From Catajapyx aquilonaris (lineage: Eukaryota): a stretch of 34,085 bases of DNA. The stretch is taken from positions 1 to 34,085 of the forward strand of contig KZ539086.1 in NCBI GenBank assembly GCA_000934665.2, written 5' to 3'. Made by a program: the position numbers and the translations under genes. This document shows positions 2,032 to 34,085 of this stretch, one piece after another. Position 1 is the stretch's first letter, and each line of letters begins with the position of its first letter. Under the pieces are notes generated by a model that saw nothing but the letters and a program-made list of their open reading frames with translations, did not search any database and had not been told where the DNA came from.

Positions 2032-2908
2032 AGGTATCAGACAAAGCCGTGCTATAAGACTTTTTCGATTTTCGGGTTCCGGGTTCACTCTATCCGCCCC
2101 TTCCCCCTGACCTCCCAGTCCCCCCACCGCCCCCNCCATTTCCCCCCTCCCAGTCCCGTGACTGACGTTGGAAACAATAGCAGTAAACATGAAAAAGTCT
2201 ACTCTAATCACGCTCACGTGATTTGCCAATCTTGTTTTGTTGACTTGCTTTTATTTCGGAAGGCGTCAAAGCAACTACCTCGCTATTTTACTTATTTAAT
2301 TTTAAAAAATTTGAATGATGTGGATTTGACGCACGTGCACGGATCAGCCAATGGGAATGAGCCAGGCGGGTCTCTAACCAATCATGGTCCCACTCTTCCT
2401 CTTGGCGTTTTATTTACCCAATGATACCCTGTACTGCCAACCGCTTGAGTCATTTGTTACACCTAATGATGCATTTTCACGATTCCCACTTGAGAACGAC
2501 AAGAATGCTTTTCTCCTCCTATATTTAGTCCTTTGGCAGTTAAAGGCTTGCTGACAGGGCTTCTTCTCAGCGGAAGAAAAACGGCACCAATACCGCTCTT
2601 CCGTGATCTGTGACGAAAAACTCGTCTTGTTTACACAAAGAAAACATCCGCCGCGGTATAAATACTTCACTACTCTCGTACTGCCAACACAATCGCAAAA
2701 AAATGAAGCAGTTGTGTGGTCCTTTAAAAATCTACTTCCACATAGCGATTTGTGGGCACTAAGATGCTTATTTTTAATCTGTTACTTTTATAGGATATCA
2801 AAGTGCTTTGGGTTGAATAAATATCTCAGACACTAGGACCGTTTTCTGAGCTTAAATTACTTCACCTGTGGCCCACATAATTTTTAAAAAACCACAATCA
2901 TTGGTGCA

Positions 2909-3270
2909 CTTACAAGGGAACGACCAAGGTCGATCGCCTCCGATTTGGTTGAAACTCGCTTGAGGAGTCACTCATGTGCGATAGACACAGTGGTGTAAGT
3001 TCTAGATGCCACTGTCCAGCCGTTTCCGAGATATGAGCGACAGAAACATCCGATATTTGACCGAGCGTAGCGTACAGGTATCGGGCGGGAAGGGACAATA
3101 AGGCCCCTATACGCGCGGCCAAAATGCGGATGTTTCTGTCACTCATATCTCGGAAACGGATGGATAGTGGCATCTAGGACTTTCACCACCGTGTCTATCG
3201 CATATGAGTGACCCCTCAAGCGAGTTTAAACCAAATCGGAGGCGACCGACCTTGGTCGTTCCTTTGTTAG
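2909..3270. mobile_element. Foldback MITE with ~150-bp terminal inverted repeats
   Basis: 2909-3065 is the imperfect reverse complement of 3115-3270 (e.g. GGAACGACCAAGGTCG / CGACCTTGGTCGTTCC). Flanks CA / TA suggest a TA target site. Confidence 0.9.
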
Positions 3271-3368
3271 TATTAATATTTGCTTCAAGTGTGGAAGTGT
3301 GGAACCTGGAATGAAGCGTTCAAGAATACAAAATTAATTTCGTGTGGTACAGCATACTATAAGTTTAG

Positions 3369-3601
3369 TAGGGCTGTGCGATATTTCGATACTGTACATC
3401 GACTGTCGATACGATATTTTCCTAATATCGAAGTTGCGATATCCGACGCTTGGCATGTGCGATGTATCGACTATCGCGATTTTTCGATGTCGGTTCGACG
3501 CGGTTCGATGTCGGTTTTTCGATTTTAGATATATCAACTTCGATTCGATATTTTTGGAGCATCTAAAGTCGATATGCAATTTCGGATATCGCACAGCCCT
3601 A
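3369..3601. mobile_element. hAT (Ac-like) MITE
   Basis: TIR TAGGGCTGTGCGATAT / ATATCGCACAGCCCTA. Interior packed with TCGAT/ATCGA subterminal motifs. Confidence 0.88.
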
Positions 3602-6600
3602 ACTATAAGTGCCGTAATGCTGCGAAATAAAAATGTACATCTGTGGAAAAGTGATTTCTACTGTTCTTCCTCTTCCTTCGCTCCATTCCCGCTAGTCATA
3701 AAATATTTACGAGATGTCCACTTTGTAAAATGCAGCATCACGTATTCTATCGCGAGAGACCTGCACTGCATCTTTTTTTTTTCTTCTTTCCTACAGTATA
3801 TACTATATACTGTAACTTATGCACTGCCTTTCATCGTATTTTTACCCTTCTTTCAACAACGCATAATAATGGTGTATAGTAACATGTCGGTGTGACGGTG
3901 CACCGGGACTATCTAATGGATGCAGTCCGTTGTTTAAAAAGAATATTAATGATGGTATCGATTTTCGCGTTACGATCATTTCATCCATCCTGTTGGAACC
4001 GGGGAAAAGCCAGGCAACAATGCAAATGCCAGGCACATAAATTATCACCAGTTGCAACCTTCGTTTACATTAATCGCAAATTTTAATTACATCAGATATG
4101 CCAAAACCACATTAAGTGGGTTTCAATGAAAGGTAATTGGACGTTGCGTGTCAGCCAAAACATAATCATATTAAATACTGAAAGCTTTAATAATTTCAGA
4201 CTTGAGGTTAAGTGGGCTCCCAAATCAAATTGCTCTATTCTACTGTAATTGTGAGGTATCTCTAGAATGATAGCAATTTAATAACTCATAACAGCCATCC
4301 AGTAGGTGTACAGTTTCACCACGTATTTTGTCCACTTGCCACTTGATCTCTAATCAATTTCCAATGTGGCCCTCACATTCCACAAGCTCCCCTCTAACCT
4401 TATCGCCATACTTTACTACACGTGCCAATGTGACATTGCACTAATCATTCTGCCCGAATTCCACGAATATTGTACAACCTATCCAAAAATTAGTCTAGTA
4501 TTTGCAAATATTCCCCCCCCCCTCCCCCCATTAGAACATTGAGTGGTAAATCGGTTGTCATTTAAGTGTATTTTAAACTTCCAACCAACTCTCACCATTT
4601 GGACAGAAACAAATTGCTTCCTGTAACTCAAGGTGTCCCGATGCAGAATAACCAATCATTCTAAGTCTAGCCTTTCTTTCTACCTCATCCACAAGCTGAG
4701 AAAGAGAAGAGTCAAAGAAGAAGAAAAAAAATGCTCCCACTCCTGGGACTTTTCCTGAGTTTTGTTATTCTTCAGGAGGCGTTGGAACTGCAGCCCTTTC
4801 AGCCAGAAAGAGAGCAAGTCCGGAACGAAAAAGGGCATAGGATAGAAATGGTGGTCTTAGGTCAACACGACCCCCCCGTTTTTTGAGAGGATCACTCGAG
4901 ACCAAAGAGTTGACAAATTCGAAGAGTGGCAGTGTTGCCAACCTTACATTAAAACAACCTGACTCTGCATAAATCAGTGAGGTCCATCGTATACAGTTAG
5001 TTGCCCATCTAATAACTCATTTAACGAGTTCTTCGTCTAGGAAAAAAAAACAATAACTGCATTATTTATGTCCGCCTTCATCCCCAACTTCGCTGCATAA
5101 ATATCTGATAATGACGGCCATGATTCAAAATGGCGGAGACCGCCCTTTTCTTATACCCTAGGCCTGATCCAGCGACGTATAATTAAAAGAGCCATATCTT
5201 GAGAGCCTGAGAGCAGTTTGCGGTTAGAACAAAAGGGAGGAGGGAGGATTGGGGGGGGGGGGGNGGGGGATGTCGTCAACATTAATTTGAGCCTGATATT
5301 TCAAGCTGCATAAATTCAGAGCACATTTTTTTTTGAAAACCTATTTAATTTCAAGGCTCCTACTTTATTTTGTACAAAATTCATGATATGGTCGCCCCTC
5401 TCGCGAACGCAATCAAACGTTTCGTTTCGGAAATGGAGCCCTCCGTGGAGGTTTCTGGTCTCCAAACAGAAACCAGAATGAGAAAAGTCATCCGGAGAAA
5501 AGAGCTGTAAATTATTCAGACTGAGTTCGAGTGGTTTTCAGCCAGCTAACTACACAGAGCCGCAGTTCACTGGTCATTTCCTCGAAGCGCTAACTCTAGA
5601 GTTAATTCATTTGGATTCTACTTGTACAAAAAAAAAAAAAGAGGCGCCATCTACAGTGCTCATTGGCAACTAGAATTGTTTGAGTTTCTAAATCGGATCC
5701 AGTGGGAGAGATCTCTGTGATGAATCTCTGCGGTGTGGAAGCAAATACCGTGACAATGGAGCCGGTTCATTTTTCATGGCCCGCAATCGGTTTCTGTACG
5801 TGCTCCCCTAAAACCGCAACAAAGATCGATTTCGCAGTGAACTGCTGATGCAGCTGTCCACAAATTAAAGGTGAAAACTACTTCTAGCTAAAAGCCTGAC
5901 TTACAAAATGCCTGTCCACAATAATACTGCGCCGATGCGTCATTTAGGATCGTTCTGACGTAGTAGCGTGACGCACGTATCAAAAAATACTGCAAATACC
6001 AGGCACGTGTCAAACCACTTGAATATATTGCCCATACTCAAACGTGAGCAGGACTTAAAATGATGCTTTTCAAAAATATAGTAGGACGTGACAAAGAGGG
6101 TAGTGCATTATTTCTGTAAGGTCCATATTGTTTGGTTTCTCCTTCAAGAAGCTTGTTATATGGATGGTCGTTTTCACAATCCCATTTCACTCCATCTTTC
6201 TTTGGAGGAGGTACTACAGGACAACCGAGTAATTTGGAGACGCGAACCACATGGGTCGTTTCTCACGCTCACATCACGAACCAGGTGTACACAAGTTACC
6301 TGAGGCTGGACTATCATGCTCATTTAGAATTCCATCATGCTTACAAACTGGACTGAAAAAAGTATGGTCGTGTGTCCTAATACGACGTTAGAGCTGTGAC
6401 GTTAATGATTACAAATGGAATTAGGTTTTAATTGAATTTGCGGTGCCCAAGCAATGCATAAATATATTAAAATGTTTGATCATTTATGGATCTTATATAG
6501 CCCTGCTCATTTCGAGGAGAGGCACGCGATGGAGCATCGTAGGCTTTCCCACGTGTCCCCCAAGGCGTTTTCCTGATGTCAGTGTTGAATAACCTGGGAG

Positions 6601-7463
6601 TTACATTTGTGGAATGAAGCGATAATATGATGGGAACAAGAATGGTGTTCTTAAAGTGAACCCTGCATGGATCGAGCCTTTCGTTTAAGTTGCTGTTTTC
6701 CATGTTCCAGATAATGGTGATACTATAATAACTGACTGGATATCGACCAGTAAACTATGGGTGTGGCGAATGGGTGAAGGAGCTACGGAATATTAGAATG
6801 CATATCACATATGCAAGAACATTTCGGCGCTATTTGGCTTAAGTGGTCACCAAAGATAATGACAAATAATTTTATTCACAAAAATGATCACTTTTATTAC
6901 TACTGAGGACCACTGAGCAAATTCAACATACCGAGTAGTCCTAGGGGGCCCAAAGCACGCTTGTACTTTCTGACGGTGAAATGGGTACAGTTGATGGCCT
7001 TTTATGGCCCTCTATAGACGCATTACGAACACTACTTGTAGCACGATACCTACTGACATAGTACAGCATGTCTTCGCACCTGTGGGGGCCTTGGCGAATC
7101 TTTGTGGCAACGTACCATAAGACTCTCAGACTTTCCTCCAGGTTGGTTGGCAGAAAGGAAGAGTCGCCCACAACCTGTCAGTGGGCGTTGTTGCTAACAA
7201 TACGTGAAAGAGATATCTAAATTAAGTGTATAATGAAAGGCGTAATATGGAAGGATGAGATGCCACATAAATGCCCTGGAAATTCCCATCGACAACCTGT
7301 CGCGCTGAAGACATCGAAATCACATGCCTCGTCATGCTTCATTTCGATGTCGGCCTTGAAAACATCCTTTTTTACATGGCATGTAAGGATATCGATGTAG
7401 GCTACTACATTTGTCCAACTTCTTCTCCATGACGTCTCCATAACGTTGGATGCAGGATGTATA

Positions 7464-15916: not shown

Positions 15917-16088
15917 NNNNNNNNNNNNNNNNNNNNNNNNNNNNNNNNNNNNNNNNNNNNNNNNNNNNNNNNNNNNNNNNNNNNNNNNNNNNNNNNNNNN
16001 NNNNNNNNNNNNNNNNNNNNNNNNNNNNNNNNNNNNNNNNNNNNNNNNNNNNNNNNNNNNNNNNNNNNNNNNNNNNNNNNNNNNNNNN
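15917..16088. other. Assembly gap (172 N)
   Basis: Run of N next to a C homopolymer. Single Ns elsewhere (2135, 5264, 9022, 25467, 26120, 28984) also sit in or beside G/C runs. Confidence 0.99.
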
Positions 16089-23301: not shown

Positions 23302-23445
23302 ATGACGCAGTACCTGCCCCCGAATCTTTTGGCTTTGTTCGCCCCTCGAGACCCCATACCGTTTCTGCCGCCAGTCACCAAGCTCCCACATGAGAAGAAA
23401 AACCGGGGATACAAGGGAGTGGGCGATTATTTGTCCCTGTTTGAG
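23302..23445 (+). CDS. SNRNP70: U1 small nuclear ribonucleoprotein 70 kDa, coding exon 1 ([48 protein letters not shown])
   Basis: Manual translation gives the hallmark U1-70K N-terminus [20 protein letters not shown]. The exon is 144 nt, phase 0, followed by donor GAG|GTGAGT at 23446. Confidence 0.98.
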
Positions 23446-26778: not shown

Positions 26779-26896
26779 GATCCAAAGGACACCCCTCCTC
26801 CTACTCGAGTGGAAACCCGAGAAGAACGGTTAGAGCGCAAGCGAAGGGAAAAAGCAGAACAAGTGGCTTATAAATTGGAGCAGGAAATCGCACTCT
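26779..26896 (+). CDS. SNRNP70: SNRNP70 coding exon 2 ([39 protein letters not shown])
   Basis: Acceptor tttttctgcAG at 26778, donor GTAAGT at 26897. 118 nt, in frame with exon 1, with the conserved PPPTR.ETREER motif. Confidence 0.97.
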
Positions 26897-27092
26897 GTAA
26901 GTACAACCATGTCGAATTTTAAAATCTTCGGTGTACAAGGAAGCATTTTAAACACGAAGTGTGTTCAAGGGTTATCCTCACACTTATTATATAAATGCAA
27001 AATTAAGCGGATTGCGTTTTCCCTGGTTTTGAGCTGTGCACCTACAGGCTCAAAAACCATTTCAAAGCGCACACATGCATGAATTATGTCAT

Positions 27093-27243: not shown

Positions 27244-27819
27244 GGCCTAAGTATAATTTTGGTGGTTTTGAGTTATTTGCACCACTAAGAGGCATTTTTT
27301 GTGCTATATTACCTGGTGAAGTCCATATGATCATAAAGATTCATAATGAGCCAGCAAGCCAGAATTTTCTGCATTACGACCCCTTCCAGATTGCCCAACA
27401 TGATAACCGAGTCTCATGGTCCTTGTTATGCCATGCATTTGACAGAAGGTAGCTTGGAAATTATGCACAAGTCCAAACAACTCTGCATATTTCTGACCGT
27501 CATATCAAGTGCAGTTACTGTATGGGCTATCTGGAGTGGGTGGAGAACTGCCTTTTAGATAAAGATGGACAATATATAAGTAACTGAATTCCATTAGCTT
27601 AACATCCATCACAATCAACATAGCACTTGCGCCTGCATGTCTTCTCCTATCCCGCTATCCTCCCTTGCTCATGGTACCTGGGAATCATGACGAAGGACCA
27701 ACGAGCTTTTACATCTAAAATCAAATTAAGGTACCGTGCGATATGCCCAACACAGGCGATGGACTATCCCGATTGTTATATTACGATGTAAGTAACTTAA
27801 TTGTGACATTTATTTTCAG

Positions 27820-27884
27820 GGGATCCACACAGCTACCCAAATGCAACTGGAGATCCATTCAAGTCTTTGTTTGTCGCCAGAATT
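27820..27884 (+). CDS. SNRNP70: SNRNP70 coding exon 3 (WDPHSYPNATGDPFKSLFVARI; RNP2 of the RRM)
   Basis: Acceptor tattttcAG at 27819, donor GTGAGT at 27885. 65 nt; T+GG rebuilds the conserved Trp of WDP; GDPFKSLFVARI motif present. Confidence 0.97.
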
Positions 27885-28394: not shown

Positions 28395-28457
28395 AATTAT
28401 GATTCGTCCGAGTCGAAGTTGAGGCGTGAGTTTGAAGGCTATGGACCTATAAAGAAG
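28395..28457 (+). CDS. SNRNP70: SNRNP70 coding exon 4 (NYDSSESKLRREFEGYGPIKK)
   Basis: Acceptor cttcttttctccAG, donor AAG|GTGAGT. 63 nt with the conserved ESKLRREFE.YGPIK. Confidence 0.97.
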
Positions 28458-28812: not shown

Positions 28813-28894
28813 ATTGTGCTGACCCATGACAAAAAGACAGGCAAGCCCAGGGGCTACGCTTTCATCGAGTATGAACATGAGCGAGACATGCACT
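28813..28894 (+). CDS. SNRNP70: SNRNP70 coding exon 5 ([30 protein letters not shown]1 RGYAFIEY)
   Basis: Acceptor ttttttccAG, donor GTGAGT at 28895. 82 nt, ends in phase 1 with a single T. Confidence 0.98.
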
Positions 28895-30816
28895 GTGAGT
28901 ATGCAGCTGAGGGGTATGCTTGTTACCAGGTGGTAGGGGAGGTGGGAGGGGGGCATATTTTTTACATTAATTTTCTTTAACCCNCCCCCCCCCCCCCTGT
29001 TTCCAACTACTCGACCCCCAGCAGCATAAAAATTAATAGTCAACAATCATTCTTGCCAGACTTGACATAACAGATTTGAAGAGAAAAAATGACAGAAAAA
29101 AAGGAACTGCCAGCCCCAACACAACTACGGTAAATTTCCACTGTTCCCGATGATTAATGCAGTTCTCTTGTTGTTCCCGGTGACAGCATGGCGAAGCTGC
29201 TGGCCACTTGTGTGTCCTTCTATTGTGTGCAATTCCCCAATCATAAGCCGCTACCTACCTACCTATAGGTTTGTATGTGTGGTAAGACCCAACATACAAA
29301 GAGCGAAAAGATTCGCGGGTTGGGTGGAGGTGGGGGGGCAAGTAATACTCAGGATCATAAGAAACTTGTTTGATAAAGTTGTTCAGTTGCCGGTGTTTTC
29401 TCAGAGCAGGTTTTGTTTTTAATACACAGTCTGTCCCTAATATTCTTGTCTGATAGTAAAATAAGATGAAAATAACATAACATTAAAAGGAACCAAGCCT
29501 GGCACACCAGAGCATTATACTGTGTGTTTTGTTAAGAAGCTTTCATCTATGTGGGTATAAATGTTGTACATGTCCTGCTGCCACCCTGAGAGGGAGATAG
29601 GGCAGGTAGAAAGGAAAGAAAGAGGGGAGGTTGCCAGGGTTGTGAAAGGAAGGTGCACATTTGTTTCTTCTGACCAGCTAAACTTTGGCCAACTCAGGAC
29701 TACCAATTTGACACAGGAGAGTCCACAACATTTTCAACTTGTAACATTAAGTATGAAACACATGCTGTAGGCAGGCATCTTGGTCCTTGCAACAATGGGA
29801 ATCTCATATGAGAGACATACTGATGGCTAAGGGTGAAGACACCTCTTATGTCAACCTTAGTATTTTACAGCACGCTGAGGATAGATAATGGTACCATCAG
29901 TCATATACTCTTGGGAGTTAATTTTGCAACAAAAGCAAAGGGGGTTACTCTTCGTTTTCATTTGGTTGTACCTTTTGCTCCATTAAGAGTGCTACTTTGT
30001 GAATACAGAGAGGGTGATAGGATTTTTGTTTAGTGTTCAGTTTACTCATGTTTGGAGAGATCTTTTTATTTACCTTACCTATCAGTATAATTTGCATGTG
30101 TTTCAGAGTGTCTTCTCAACGTTGAGATATTTTTATCAGTCAGAAGCATCCAGGTAAATGACACTGGACTAATTACCTCATTATGACCCACCCTTAACCC
30201 AATAGCAGATATGGCCTGTTATTTCTGGATCCAAGTAACATAGAACAGCTAGTCAATGAGTCACTCTTGATTGAGCTTGAATAGGAGAACCAGGTATCTT
30301 AGAGTCAATAGAACTTAGCTAAACAAGTTCATCACCATTCAGCACATAACCTTCCGGAGAATTTTTATAACTCCGCATGGTTAAATGAAGATGGCTCACC
30401 ATTGGAGTGAAACATTTACTTGAAACAGCAGAATTTAGGTTAAGGAGTATTATGTGAATCCTCCATCTTGAGGCTTTGTCTCTTAATTTGCATTGAAGTT
30501 TTTATGCTTCTCGTATTACAGTTAGATAGTTTTTAACGTTCAGACAGTGCATGGGCCCTCGATCAGTGACATAATTTTGTTATTAACAAGGAGGTTGATT
30601 TTAAGAGCGTTCTCTGTAGTATTTGCACACTGCTGATATTTTCTGTAGTTTTTGTTCTAAGGTGCTTTTTTTTTAAATGTAAATTTTACTATTGGATGAG
30701 AACTTACAGACTGTGTAATGAGTAATGGTTGGGGAGGAGGGGGAGAATTGGGAAAGGTGGAGTGATTTGTTTCTGGTGACAGCTTGATGTTAGTAGTGTT
30801 AATATGGAAATAATTG

Positions 30817-32064
30817 GTAAGAGATTTGTGGTAAGTGATACTTAAAAAGTATGAACTCTTTGTTTAGAAGCACAAATACTTGCTGTGAGCAGTTGAACTC
30901 AGCTAGTGATTGTAAGCTTGTGCGCAAGAGTTTGTACAGGAATGGTTAATTTGACGAATGCAACGTAAGTAACTGGGTGAAGTAGAAGCGAGAAAAGGAG
31001 AGGTTATTTGCTCCAGACTGGAAAGTATTATGAGATGGAAGCAAACGTCGGGGAACTTCATTCACTTCAAGCTACTTCCCCAATTTAAGAAAGTTCATGT
31101 ACAGGGTGAGCCAATAAGTTGTGACCAGATTGCAGTTTGTCATATTTCTCTGCTCAAGTAGCTGTAGACTTCATGCAGGCAATTTTCAAGTCTCATATTT
31201 TTCTTGACAATTGAAAATATGAAGATGTGTGGATTGCTTGTGTGGGGTTTTTTGGCAGCTATTTTTTTTGCATGAGAGAGCTGCAGCAATTGTGGTTGAG
31301 GGCTGTTGGTTTACCCTGTATTTTTATGGCCCCATTTGAAACATGTCCCCAAGTAAGTATGGCCAGTGGGTAGGTATCTCGTGTGTTTGCTGCTGTTTGA
31401 TATTTTATTTTTTAAATTTATGACCCGGATTATCCGGTAGCAAACATTTTATTTTTTCAGAAAAAAACTTAAAAATTTATGATACTCATAATTGGCAGGT
31501 GGAATCAAGGTCATGCATGAGAGTAAATTTTCTTTATTAGTTTTCTTTCTTTATGAATGTTGTGAAATTTTGACTGCCTGCCTGTAATGTAAGTACTGTT
31601 GATGAACTGGTAAGTGGCAGCGTGATTTTTTAAATAGATATTTTGTATGTGAGGGTTGGGGGGGTTACGGGAAAAATGTGGCTTTCGGTAAGTAGCTTGG
31701 AGAGTGATGGATGACCTCAAAACACAGAACACTGCTTGGAACGGCCCCCCATTTACCCTGGAAATTTCACCCATTGGGATCCATCTCACAAATTTGGCGG
31801 TTCTTTAGGGTGGGTATAGGAAAATAGATGCACATCTTCAGACAAATGGTAACTGGTAAAAGCAATGGAGTGGCAATGAAATTGGTAAACATTGGGTAGA
31901 TTTTTACATTTTAAAAATGGTATGCCAGATGGTTATGCAATAATGTAACGTTTGGGGGAGTTGGGGCATCATATTGCGTAACTATCTGCACATGGTAAGC
32001 TCAATGTTATTTCCAGGTAATGTAGGTTCCTTAAGTCATTAATTTTCAGAGGACCCACGTAAGT
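30817..32064 (+). promoter_or_regulatory. Cluster of cryptic 5' splice sites / U1 snRNP binding sites in SNRNP70 intron 28895-32323
   Basis: Exact GTAAGT at 30831, 30965, 31353, 31589, 31610, 31688 and 32059, plus GTAAGA 30817, GTAAGC 30912 and 31995, GTGAGC 31106, CAG|GTAATG 32017. Confidence 0.7.
31102..31318. mobile_element. Old, degenerate mariner-like MITE in SNRNP70 intron 5
   Basis: TA|CAGGGTGAGCCAA ... TTGGTTTACCCTG|TA (imperfect TIR). Confidence 0.5.
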
Positions 32065-32323
32065 ACCAGGAAATTGGGGCTTGGAAGAAGGTTACATCGA
32101 GTCACCACCATGGGGGGAAAAAATACATTTCCGTAGACGTGTTGATTTTCTTTCCAGTGAACGCCAAATTTTTGGCCAGAAAAAAATTGCAGTTACTTCT
32201 TTCCAGCCCTGCATTAGTCATGCATTCAATTACTAGTCAGTAATGCAATATTTGAATTGGTTGGGTGGGATTTTGGGGTGCCTTGTCACAGTGGGTTTTT
32301 AAATCCATTGCCTCTGTTTCCAG

Positions 32324-32425
32324 CCGCGTACAAGCATGCTGATGGGAAGAAGATAGATGGGAGGAGGGTCCTGGTGGATGTGGAGCGGGGGAGAACAGTG
32401 AAAGGATGGCTGCCCAGGCGTTTAG
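32324..32425 (+). CDS. SNRNP70: SNRNP70 coding exon 6 ([34 protein letters not shown])
   Basis: Acceptor ctctgtttccAG at 32323, donor TAG|GTGTGT. 102 nt, near-invariant U1-70K peptide (partly visible in ORF 32257..32490). Confidence 0.98.
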
Positions 32426-32723
32426 GTGTGTATCCACTAACATGTATCATTCTCATTTATTACTGCAACAATAAGAGTGGTAAGGTGTAACTTTCAGCTG
32501 ATAGGTGTAGTTTGTATTCAGTAAGGTTCATTGTAAAATGGTTGGGAAGGACCGGTTGGCTAACTAGACCGTTTCCCCGCGTGGCGTCGCTGGTGACAAC
32601 TATGCCGGCAACCCGCTGTATACTTGTTCTCTTCTCTGCCACTCTTCCACTACGCGCGGAACAGGTGCACTGATAAGATAAGGTCAATTACACTTGTACC
32701 TGCAACGGTACATGTGCCTTGCA

Positions 32724-33011
32724 ACCGAAGCAGGTTGGCATAGTGGATAAGGCGTCCGACTGCTAATCGGGAGGTCCTGGGTTCGAATCCCGGTGCCGGC
32801 AACTCTAACCGTGGTTTTCTGTGGTTTCCCACGGTTTCTCCAGGAGAATTCCGGAGTTGTTTCCTAATAAACAGGCCACAGCCGCCCCCTTCCTTTTCTA
32901 TCCTCTCCCAAAAAGCAATAAGTAAAAATGCAAGCAAAGAGTTCCAGACAAAACAAAAATTCCCCCCTAAAGAGCCTCCGGCTGATAACGGGGTATGAAT
33001 TAATTAATTAT
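32724..33011 (+). mobile_element. tRNA-derived SINE in SNRNP70 intron 6
   Basis: A-box TGGCATAGTGG (32736-32746), B-box GGTTCGAATCC (32780-32790), (AATT)n tail. Perfect 15-bp TSD TACATGTGCCTTGCA at 32709-32723 and 33012-33026. Confidence 0.93.
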
Positions 33012-33988
33012 TACATGTGCCTTGCACCTGTGCCTGCAAGGCGGCATTTGTGCTCTGCTGCACTAATCCACTAATTCTGCTGTAGAGACTCAAGAATTTG
33101 TGCCGGCCAGTCTACTTATTGATTGTGTAAATTTTGTTAATATATTTAGTTCTACTTGCATTTTTACTAGCATTTCTGGTGGTAATTATCTTCAATGGAA
33201 ATTGTCTCCTTCATAAATAAACTCATGATATTAAAAAATCAAATCATTTGTAAAGGAGTCACTTTCACACTAGCACAGCCTAAGTTTTATTGTAAAATAT
33301 TTTTTATTTCATTATATGAAAATATGACGAGCTTTTTTTTAGGATAAAACCTCCATCAGGCACTTTACATTGAATTTCATTTATTCGCCGAGCGTTGGAT
33401 TGTTCACCCACCGACATGTTGGGTGTCTTCTTTTCATGTCCGAGGTGTCGAGCGAATAAGCAATACAGAAGTTGTTTAAAATCTTGTATTTTTGGGATCT
33501 GTTTATTCTTTGAACCCTTTCTCCTCGTTAACCCTTACAATCATGAACAGTCGTTTTATAGCCTGTAATGATTATGGTCATCCATAAGTGTCACATGAAT
33601 ACCCTTCTTCACATGATGATAATGAGAGATTGTGGCACTTACAGCTTCAATGAGGAAAAAGTCCCTTGGCACATACGGCTTTCTTGTTTCGTCACATTTG
33701 GCCTTAAATTTTTATTATAAAGCAGTGGTGTATGTTCCCTATTATTGAATCTGGCCAAGTGCCTTGATTTTGTTACTTCTGTCACATCATGTTCATCAAG
33801 AAAGGAGAATGATGGATATGGACCAAAAAAAATTGCTTTTTCTCAGTTTCAAAAAATTTGGCACTTGCAGTCTTAATCATTTCCAGTCTTCATATGTGAA
33901 TGAGTCAATTGAAGACTGAATTATAACTAGTTGATAAGTGTCATCCTTATTTGACAGACATTAATGTTTCTCTCTTTTTCTTCAATAG

Positions 33989-34085
33989 GCGGTGGCCTGG
34001 GCGGAACTCGTAGGGGTGGGCCTGAGGTGAACATAAAGCACTCGGGGAGGGAAGACAATGAGCGTGAGAGGGAGCGATATCGCGA
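33989..34085 (+). CDS. SNRNP70: SNRNP70 coding exon 7, truncated by window end ([32 protein letters not shown]...)
   Basis: Acceptor tctctttttcttcaatAG at 33988. Conserved [11 protein letters not shown] motif and the start of the RE/RD-rich low-complexity region; no stop inside the window. Confidence 0.97.

Follow-up and report, generated by a model that had tools for sequence, protein, structure and literature searches.

The window, that is, the whole stretch of 34,085 nucleotides (nt) analysed here, covers positions 1 to 34,085 of contig KZ539086.1 of Catajapyx aquilonaris (assembly GCA_000934665.2) and carries the gene for U1-70K, a protein of the U1 small nuclear ribonucleoprotein (U1 snRNP). 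Almost every splicing event begins with U1 snRNP, whose level has to be kept steady. The subject of this report is one intron of the gene, in which an alternative acceptor, a candidate decoy exon with a conserved donor-like element and a dense array of seven exact GTAAGT hexamers follow one another; coordinates refer to the + strand unless stated otherwise. A preliminary description of the window, made from its sequence alone, had named the gene and had placed the array between the exon ending ...HERDMH and the exon opening SAYKHADG.... Both assignments are confirmed by spliced RNA contigs of a run designated X1 and by Pfam matches in the exon translations (U1snRNP70_N, E 3.3e-06, in exon 26779..26896; RRM_1 in exon 28813..28894).

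The X1 contigs contain six canonical GT..AG joints, and the joined exons form one open U1-70K frame; therefore, X1 holds spliced RNA. The first coding exon (23302..23445) begins with the ATG at 23302, and an RNA contig covers 23167-23443 and joins 26777 (cut +2). Further exons lie at 26779..26896 (joints 23443>26777 and 26896>27820), with GTAAGT at 26897 as donor; at 27820..27884 (joints, translation); at 28395..28457 (joints, cut +2, and translation); and at 28813..28894 (joints 28455>28811, 28894>32324 and 28894>29187). The last of these ends ...EYEHERDMH plus the first base of a Ser codon and is followed by a GTGAGT donor at 28895. The exon at 32324..32425 opens with the shared Ser (joints 28894>32324 and 32422>33986, cut +3; translation), and the exon at 33989..34085, placed by its translation, runs off the window. 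Between 28894 and 32324 lies an intron of 3429 nt (28895..32323) with GT..AG ends. As seen from joint 28894>32324 and the spliced translation, it splits the RRM between ...EHERDMH and SAYKHADG.... We take this to be the codon at which human intron 7 is located, going by the human protein and by vertebrate-type protein fragments that start AYKHADG.

Two joints leave the donor side at 28894, both GT..AG: the normal joint 28894>32324 and an alternative joint 28894>29187. The alternative acceptor (acceptor side 29171..29186) belongs to a contig that runs on to 29723, and in the frame set by this joint a premature TAA stop is reached 78 codons on, at 29420..29422. Contig cover inside the intron extends over 29187-29723, 29867-30560 and 30704-32353, with 29724-29866 and 30561-30703 bare. 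The last of these contigs, 1650 nt long, shows no difference from the window and no joint; it spans all seven GTAAGT sites and crosses the acceptor at 32324. Joints span each of the gene's four introns upstream of this one. Thus, in the contigs of this one run, retention concerns mainly the part of the intron downstream of the decoy. An alternative and a retained isoform, the RNA-level check proposed in the preliminary description, are thereby both present, and its suggestion of intron detention fits the retained, array-bearing part. Note that contig depths in X1 are unusable as isoform ratios and that rare forms are lost from contigs.

The alternative acceptor marks the start of a candidate decoy, or poison, exon (29187..29281). 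Its start is supported by RNA and its end is predicted from sequence: three overlapping donor-like sites could end it, giving lengths of 82, 86 or 95 nt. These sites (29269 GTTTGT, 29273 GTATGT and 29282 GTAAGA) form a cryptic-donor cluster 82-95 nt 3' of the acceptor at 29187 and lie in a 36-nt element, ATAGGTTTGTATGTGTGGTAAGACCCAACATACAAA (29265..29300). The element is the only block of the window intron that can be aligned with the retained introns of other species, which we recovered from metagenome contigs (loci L017 to L064, described below). In L017, L022 and L020, 35-36 nt of it recur with 97% identity, and its core also aligns in L023 and L038. The pattern GGTT.GTAT-N(2-10)-GGTAAG is found in the window and in seven other species (L017, L020, L022, L023, L036, L038 and L039), and each of these matches lies in this intron on the + strand; there is no other occurrence in 307 kb per strand. 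The unit can be repeated in tandem, with two units in the copepod-like L039, and the human oligonucleotides suggest the same arrangement. Other tandem donor-like motifs occupy the same place in the hydrozoan-like L064 and in L051. Aligning the intron across relatives, as the preliminary description had proposed, thus yields a conserved decoy element, while the sites of the array are unalignable.

Comparison of the element with the target of the human 'AC' morpholino gave agreement at 17 of 22 ungapped positions (GGTTTGTAT, four bases, GGTAAGA). When the whole window was searched with the 'AC' oligonucleotide, the best + strand match was the decoy (score 13), whereas the human AB and Parra oligonucleotides had their best window matches elsewhere, within the shuffle range. 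The likeness to the human element is persuasive only in view of its position at the predicted place; window-wide it is not significant. The element may also fold: a hairpin is predicted with arms 29270-29283 (TTTGTATGTGTGG) and 29287-29300 (CCAACATACAAA), which would bury GTATGT and leave GGTAAGA in the loop. It is predicted in four of six sequences (z -2.1 to -2.7; window 29270-29300, L017 915-945, L020 686-715, L022 646-675) and is absent in L023 and L039. The arms are invariant among the four arthropod-like sequences, with no covariation, and the structure is therefore unproven.

The array of seven exact GTAAGT hexamers occupies 30817..32064, with sites at 30831, 30965, 31353 (GTAAGTAT), 31589, 31610, 31688 and 32059, exactly as first described. 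It is strand-specific, with seven exact GTAAGT on the + strand and none on the - strand. The reported abundance of near matches also held up: GTAAG occurs ten times on + and never on -, sites agreeing with CAG|GTAAGT at seven or more of nine positions number seven on + (1.35 expected) and none on -, and individual near matches include GTAAGA 30817, GTAGGT 31370, GTAAGC 31995 and GTAATG 32017. Five of the seven array sites also match at +7. Outside the array, the window has six GTAAGT on the + strand (2995, 8513, 12559, 20551, 26897 and 27788), in line with the handful originally reported, and nine on the - strand; the one at 26897 is a used donor of the same U1-70K gene. Relative to other introns the array is likewise dense, since the five other U1-70K introns in the window (~6.6 kb) contain a single non-donor GTAAGT on +. 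An eighth intronic copy, GTAAGTAACT at 27788-27793, lies 27 nt 5' of the acceptor at 27820 and overlaps a TAAC branch-point-like motif.

The cluster could in principle reflect local composition, a repeat or chance among the very many windows scanned. Its setting lends this some plausibility, the + strand of the array region being G- and T-rich (GC skew +0.24 over 30-32 kb). However, dinucleotide shuffles of 30817-32064, which keep the skew, gave an expected 0.54 GTAAGT against the seven seen, and 0 of 300 reached seven, in accordance with the early estimate of well under one by chance. Dinucleotide shuffles of the whole window gave at most five GTAAGT in any 1250-nt span on either strand (0 of 1000 reached seven). 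No repeat family and no direct, inverted or tandem repeats explaining the sites were found, and among hexamers in the corresponding intron of 16 other species, GTAAGT ranks second in enrichment (see below). We therefore consider an origin by composition or chance very improbable.

A conceivable role for multiple strong donors deep in an intron is recursive splicing, in which the array sites would act as ratchet points for stepwise removal. The intron measures only 3.4 kb, and we regard this role as scarcely credible. Recursive sites of the kind in which pyrimidines and AG are fused to GTAAGT are excluded at the sequence level, AG preceding none of the seven hexamers.

It is also possible, though we judge it unlikely, that the seven hexamers are donors in actual use, belonging either to several short poison exons or to a single long alternative exon, with productive splicing followed by decay. 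All are perfect at +1 to +6, acceptor-like sequences are found nearby (30709/30710, 30782/30783 and a candidate at 31461), and contigs lose rare isoforms. In addition, the human cryptic donors A-D are used at a low level that becomes visible after blocking nonsense-mediated decay (accessible text of PMC3798272). On the other hand, the contig 30704-32353 passes unspliced through the seven sites and on over the downstream acceptor, none of the sites is the start of a joint, and the exonic side of the sites is poor, none having AG at -2/-1.

One stretch at the 5' end of the array resembles the decoy region. An acceptor-like copy at 30767-30786 is 85% identical to 29171-29190 (17 of 20 nt, plus a 9-mer) and has GTAAGA (30817) and GTAAGT (30831) 3' of it, giving a weak candidate for a second decoy (30767..30836). 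This similarity is short and may have arisen by chance; no joint was seen there. The intron further contains G-runs (GGGG+) on the + strand at 28910-28955, 29318-29340, 30738-30770, 31651-31672, 31951-31968 and 32260-32280, which adjoin the constitutive donor, the decoy and the array. G-runs in introns are known splicing enhancers.

U1 sites in introns are known to suppress nearby poly(A) signals, and the array might serve telescripting, that is, shield a long retained intron from premature cleavage and polyadenylation with no role in splicing. Yet the 3.4-kb intron contains no AATAAA, which makes telescripting unlikely as the main role, and its single ATTAAA (29482) lies far 5' of the array. 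Moreover, if protection failed when U1 is low, U1-70K would drop still more, which is the opposite of what homeostasis calls for. Altogether, we consider this explanation quite improbable.

An alignment of eight U1-70K proteins served as query in a scan of metagenome contigs for related loci, and the best 80 of 409 confirmed loci were analysed. In 61 of the 80, the protein match runs gapless across the junction at residue 164/165; these are spliced cDNA-like or intronless sequences and were excluded from the intron analysis. The other 19 (L017, L018, L020, L022-L025, L030, L034-L036, L038-L040, L044, L048, L051, L058 and L064) have residues ~3-164 fused, the upstream introns being gone, and diverge exactly after ...E(H/K)E(R/K)(D/E)MH. 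Exon 8 resumes after 0.36-1.7 kb in eight of them, and the others end inside the insert. The inserts come in two shapes. In the first, the donor is kept, with GTAAGT, GTGAGT or GTATGT after the exon. In the second (L020, L022, L039, L051 and L064), the exon has been joined to non-GT sequence, and everything from there to exon 8 is retained, which is the shape of the window isoform. That these are RNA isoforms follows from L018 and L020, which agree over 600 nt before they differ, and from L064, which is the spliced L028 with 969 nt inserted. Ten contigs, those with the frame set, reach an in-frame stop 3-69 nt past the exon end. In L023 (2205-4118) and L048 (2451-3916), 1.5-1.9 kb beyond exon 8 have no U1-70K match and contain one GTAAGT each, and the next intron may be retained there as well.

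With one contig kept per species (L018, L024 and L025 dropped), 16 species remained. Their taxa are indicated by the best named matches, and no tree was used for dating. The window itself is closest to psyllid and damselfly (87%) and tick (86%). Among the others, L022 matches Apis at 92.5%, L018/L020 locust at 84%, L030 Daphnia at 89%, and L034, L039 and L040 the copepod Eurytemora at 74-84%. L064 matches Hydractinia at 67%, Hydra at 65% and any bilaterian at no more than 58%. The nearest matches of L035 and L048 are amphioxus and frog (64-68%), and that of L051 is a snail (68%).

The retained parts of the 16 other species, pooled to 13,029 nt with ~12 nt at the constitutive donor excluded, contain 28 GTAAGT in sense and six in antisense. 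Shuffles of the pool averaged 4.6 and peaked at 13; the count of 28 was reached in 0 of 1000. Ranked against a second-order Markov expectation, the first two of all 4096 hexamers were GGTAAG (33 vs 4.5 expected) and GTAAGT (28 vs 6.3), and GTAAGA, TGGTAA, GTAAGC and AGGTAA were also among the top nine. The decoy element supplies part of the GGTAAG count; it does not contribute to the GTAAGT count, except possibly in L030. At least one non-donor GTAAGT was present in 12 of the 16 species and at least two in eight (six in L039, four in L064). These sites lie 3' of the decoy and cannot be aligned between species. Judged from the sequences compared, individual GTAAGT sites come and go in evolution; what persists is how densely they stand on the sense strand, not where. 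For the proposal in the preliminary description of a circuit of bilaterian age, this gives a divided outcome: the same retained intron and the sense-strand donor enrichment in 16 other species, including a hydrozoan-like one, fit an old circuit, but the individual array sites are not conserved in position.

Taken together, 28895-32323 is probably a self-regulatory intron of U1-70K, built like intron 7 of vertebrate SNRNP70. The reading that we favour, and hold to be rather probable, is that it represents an invertebrate form of the SNRNP70 intron-7 decoy-exon/retention switch, in which the array provides extra docking sites for U1. In some transcripts the upstream exon is spliced to the acceptor at 29187, and the stop codon at 29420 comes in with it. 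By analogy with human cells, U1 snRNP bound to the three overlapping weak donors at 29269-29287 would define the decoy exon. The seven consensus donors 1.5-2.8 kb further on would offer additional U1 docking, keeping the incompletely spliced RNA unproductive, whether because they engage the downstream acceptor and splicing does not follow or through U1-dependent nuclear retention. According to the abstract of PMC9074902, mRNAs with donor motifs stay in the nucleus and are degraded, and its title has U1-70K promoting such retention. More active U1 snRNP would in this way lead to less productive U1-70K mRNA, a negative feedback. The preliminary description had taken the array for an 'expanded version' of the vertebrate sensor, but it does not correspond to the vertebrate cryptic-donor cluster; that cluster has its counterpart in a distinct conserved element, 29265-29300, which lies upstream of the array by 1.5-2.8 kb. 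That interpretation is only partly supported, because the array forms a second layer behind a conserved decoy exon rather than the vertebrate cluster enlarged.

Several observations weigh against this reading. Occupancy by U1 is something we infer, for the decoy sites from the human work and for the array with no direct precedent in the papers compared here. With 1.5-2.8 kb between it and the alternative acceptor at 29187, the array is too distant for simple exon definition, and its role is therefore less clear than that of the decoy donors. On their exonic side, the array sites have AG at -2/-1 in none of seven cases and G at -1 in three. No joints from the seven GTAAGT or from the decoy donors were seen, and as contigs lose rare forms, this shows neither use nor non-use. 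The RNA evidence as a whole comes from one run of one study, its kind unrecorded and its reads kept as contigs. The likeness to the human element is based on published 25-nt oligonucleotides; shuffled 'AC' queries reach a score of 14, and an unrelated match on the - strand also scores 14. The intron control for array density consists of the five other introns of the U1-70K gene and is not genome-wide. Finally, four of the 16 species (L017, L022, L034 and L035) have no non-donor GTAAGT in the part retrieved.

A bolder version of the switch, which we put forward tentatively, is a two-layer sensor of U1 dosage in U1-70K that would predate the split of cnidarians and bilaterians. One layer would be the conserved decoy unit (GGTTTGTAT..GGTAAG, in arthropods and human), the other an evolving array of perfect sites for U1 docking that would act as a graded counter and not as one switch, its number of sites setting how steeply productive splicing falls as U1 rises.

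Elsewhere in the window, a tRNA-like element lies on the + strand at 32734-32801, in the intron 32426-33988 (Rfam tRNA, 42.3 bits), and is called by ARAGORN as tRNA-Ser(GCT) at 32730-32801. X1 contigs at this element have summed depths of 2880-4072 and many variant letters. It is probably a member of a tRNA-derived family of short interspersed elements or else a tRNA gene lying within that of U1-70K. 'GFEP.T' reading frames at ~228-689 and ~1683-1991 suggest more copies. The tRNA-like element was the only match in the Rfam search of the window, and the open reading frames 5' of the U1-70K gene held nothing notable. The assembly has a gap of 172 N at 15917-16088 and six single N, one of which (28984) falls within a C-run in the regulated intron.

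The occurrence of the shared isoform and the decoy element in arthropod-like species, of the isoform with its own tandem donor-like motifs in a hydrozoan-like one, and of a sense-strand excess of consensus donors suggests that the circuit is old and widespread in animals. The only U1-70K feedback that has been worked out is that of vertebrates, and the present findings open the circuit to testing in tractable invertebrates. They also point to a second component, the downstream donor array, which is not discussed in the accessible portions of the vertebrate papers compared here.

Several known systems share single traits with the U1-70K intron. In Arabidopsis, the sixth intron of U1-70K is kept in some transcripts, which would truncate the protein (accessible text of PMC545797); homology to the window intron is not implied. 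The ultraconserved pseudo-5' splice site of ENOX1/Enox (accessible text of PMC13100119) is an intronic donor look-alike that is bound by U1, is never spliced, promotes retention or skipping and is conserved from insects to human; unlike the array or the decoy cluster, it consists of one 9-nt site and belongs to a different gene. In the searchable supplements of that paper, SNRNP70 occurs once, in a sheet of human conserved pseudo-5' splice sites. The splicing enhancer that U11 snRNP binds (USSE) of the U11-48K and U11/U12-65K genes resembles the present arrangement in placing tandem snRNP-binding donors in a gene for a protein of the same snRNP. As described in the accessible text of PMC3584512, the USSE tandem activates an upstream acceptor, yields an unstable mRNA and is conserved in animals and plants. 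It differs in that its donors are of the U12 type and are bound by U11. Identity of our element with a USSE was rejected: the gene contains no U12-type donor, and RTATCCTT occurs once in the window, at 7385 on the - strand.

The decoy-exon mechanism of intron retention (Parra et al. 2018, PMC6097662; Parra et al. 2020, PMC7373989; both in their accessible parts) is closer. There, too, the retained intron, ~3 kb long, contains a small exon missing from the annotation, and the upstream part is spliced while the downstream part is mainly retained, which is the shape of the window contigs. Human SNRNP70 intron 7 measures 3.2 kb and is retained 'primarily only' in its downstream part, and a morpholino against the decoy donor reduced its retention from ~35% to ~9% (PMC7373989). 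The human decoy is described as conserved 'from fish to mammals', and arrays of consensus donors downstream of it are not mentioned in the accessible sections of these papers.

The closest relative is the vertebrate exon-7a switch of the U1C/U1-70K cross-regulation (Rosel-Hillgartner et al. 2013, PMC3798272, accessible text). In human intron 7, an alternative acceptor (+642) leads to exon 7a with a stop codon and requires U1 snRNP on the cryptic donors A-C just downstream. The preliminary description had summarised this literature (alternative 3' splice site, premature stop, cryptic donors) accurately for vertebrates. Both systems have an internal alternative acceptor followed by a premature stop, and several overlapping or adjacent cryptic donors within ~100 nt of that acceptor; the GGTTTGTAT...GGTAAGA core is common to our donor element and the human morpholino targets, and the logic of negative feedback would be the same here by analogy. 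At the level of sequence and RNA, the window thus shows what characterises the SNRNP70 intron-7 switch, and dependence on U1 and U1C as well as nonsense-mediated decay or nuclear retention of the unproductive isoform would follow by analogy. In the accessible text, the known switch is described only in human, mouse and zebrafish and its conservation is given as 'among vertebrates'; no report of such a U1-70K switch in an invertebrate was found in the literature, within a limited coverage of subscription papers. The two also differ in the position of the acceptor, at +292 here as compared to +642 in human, and in the separate array of seven perfect GTAAGT 1.5-2.8 kb further downstream. In conclusion, the decoy switch is known from vertebrates, and what is new here is its probable occurrence in an invertebrate and the downstream donor array behind the conserved decoy exon.

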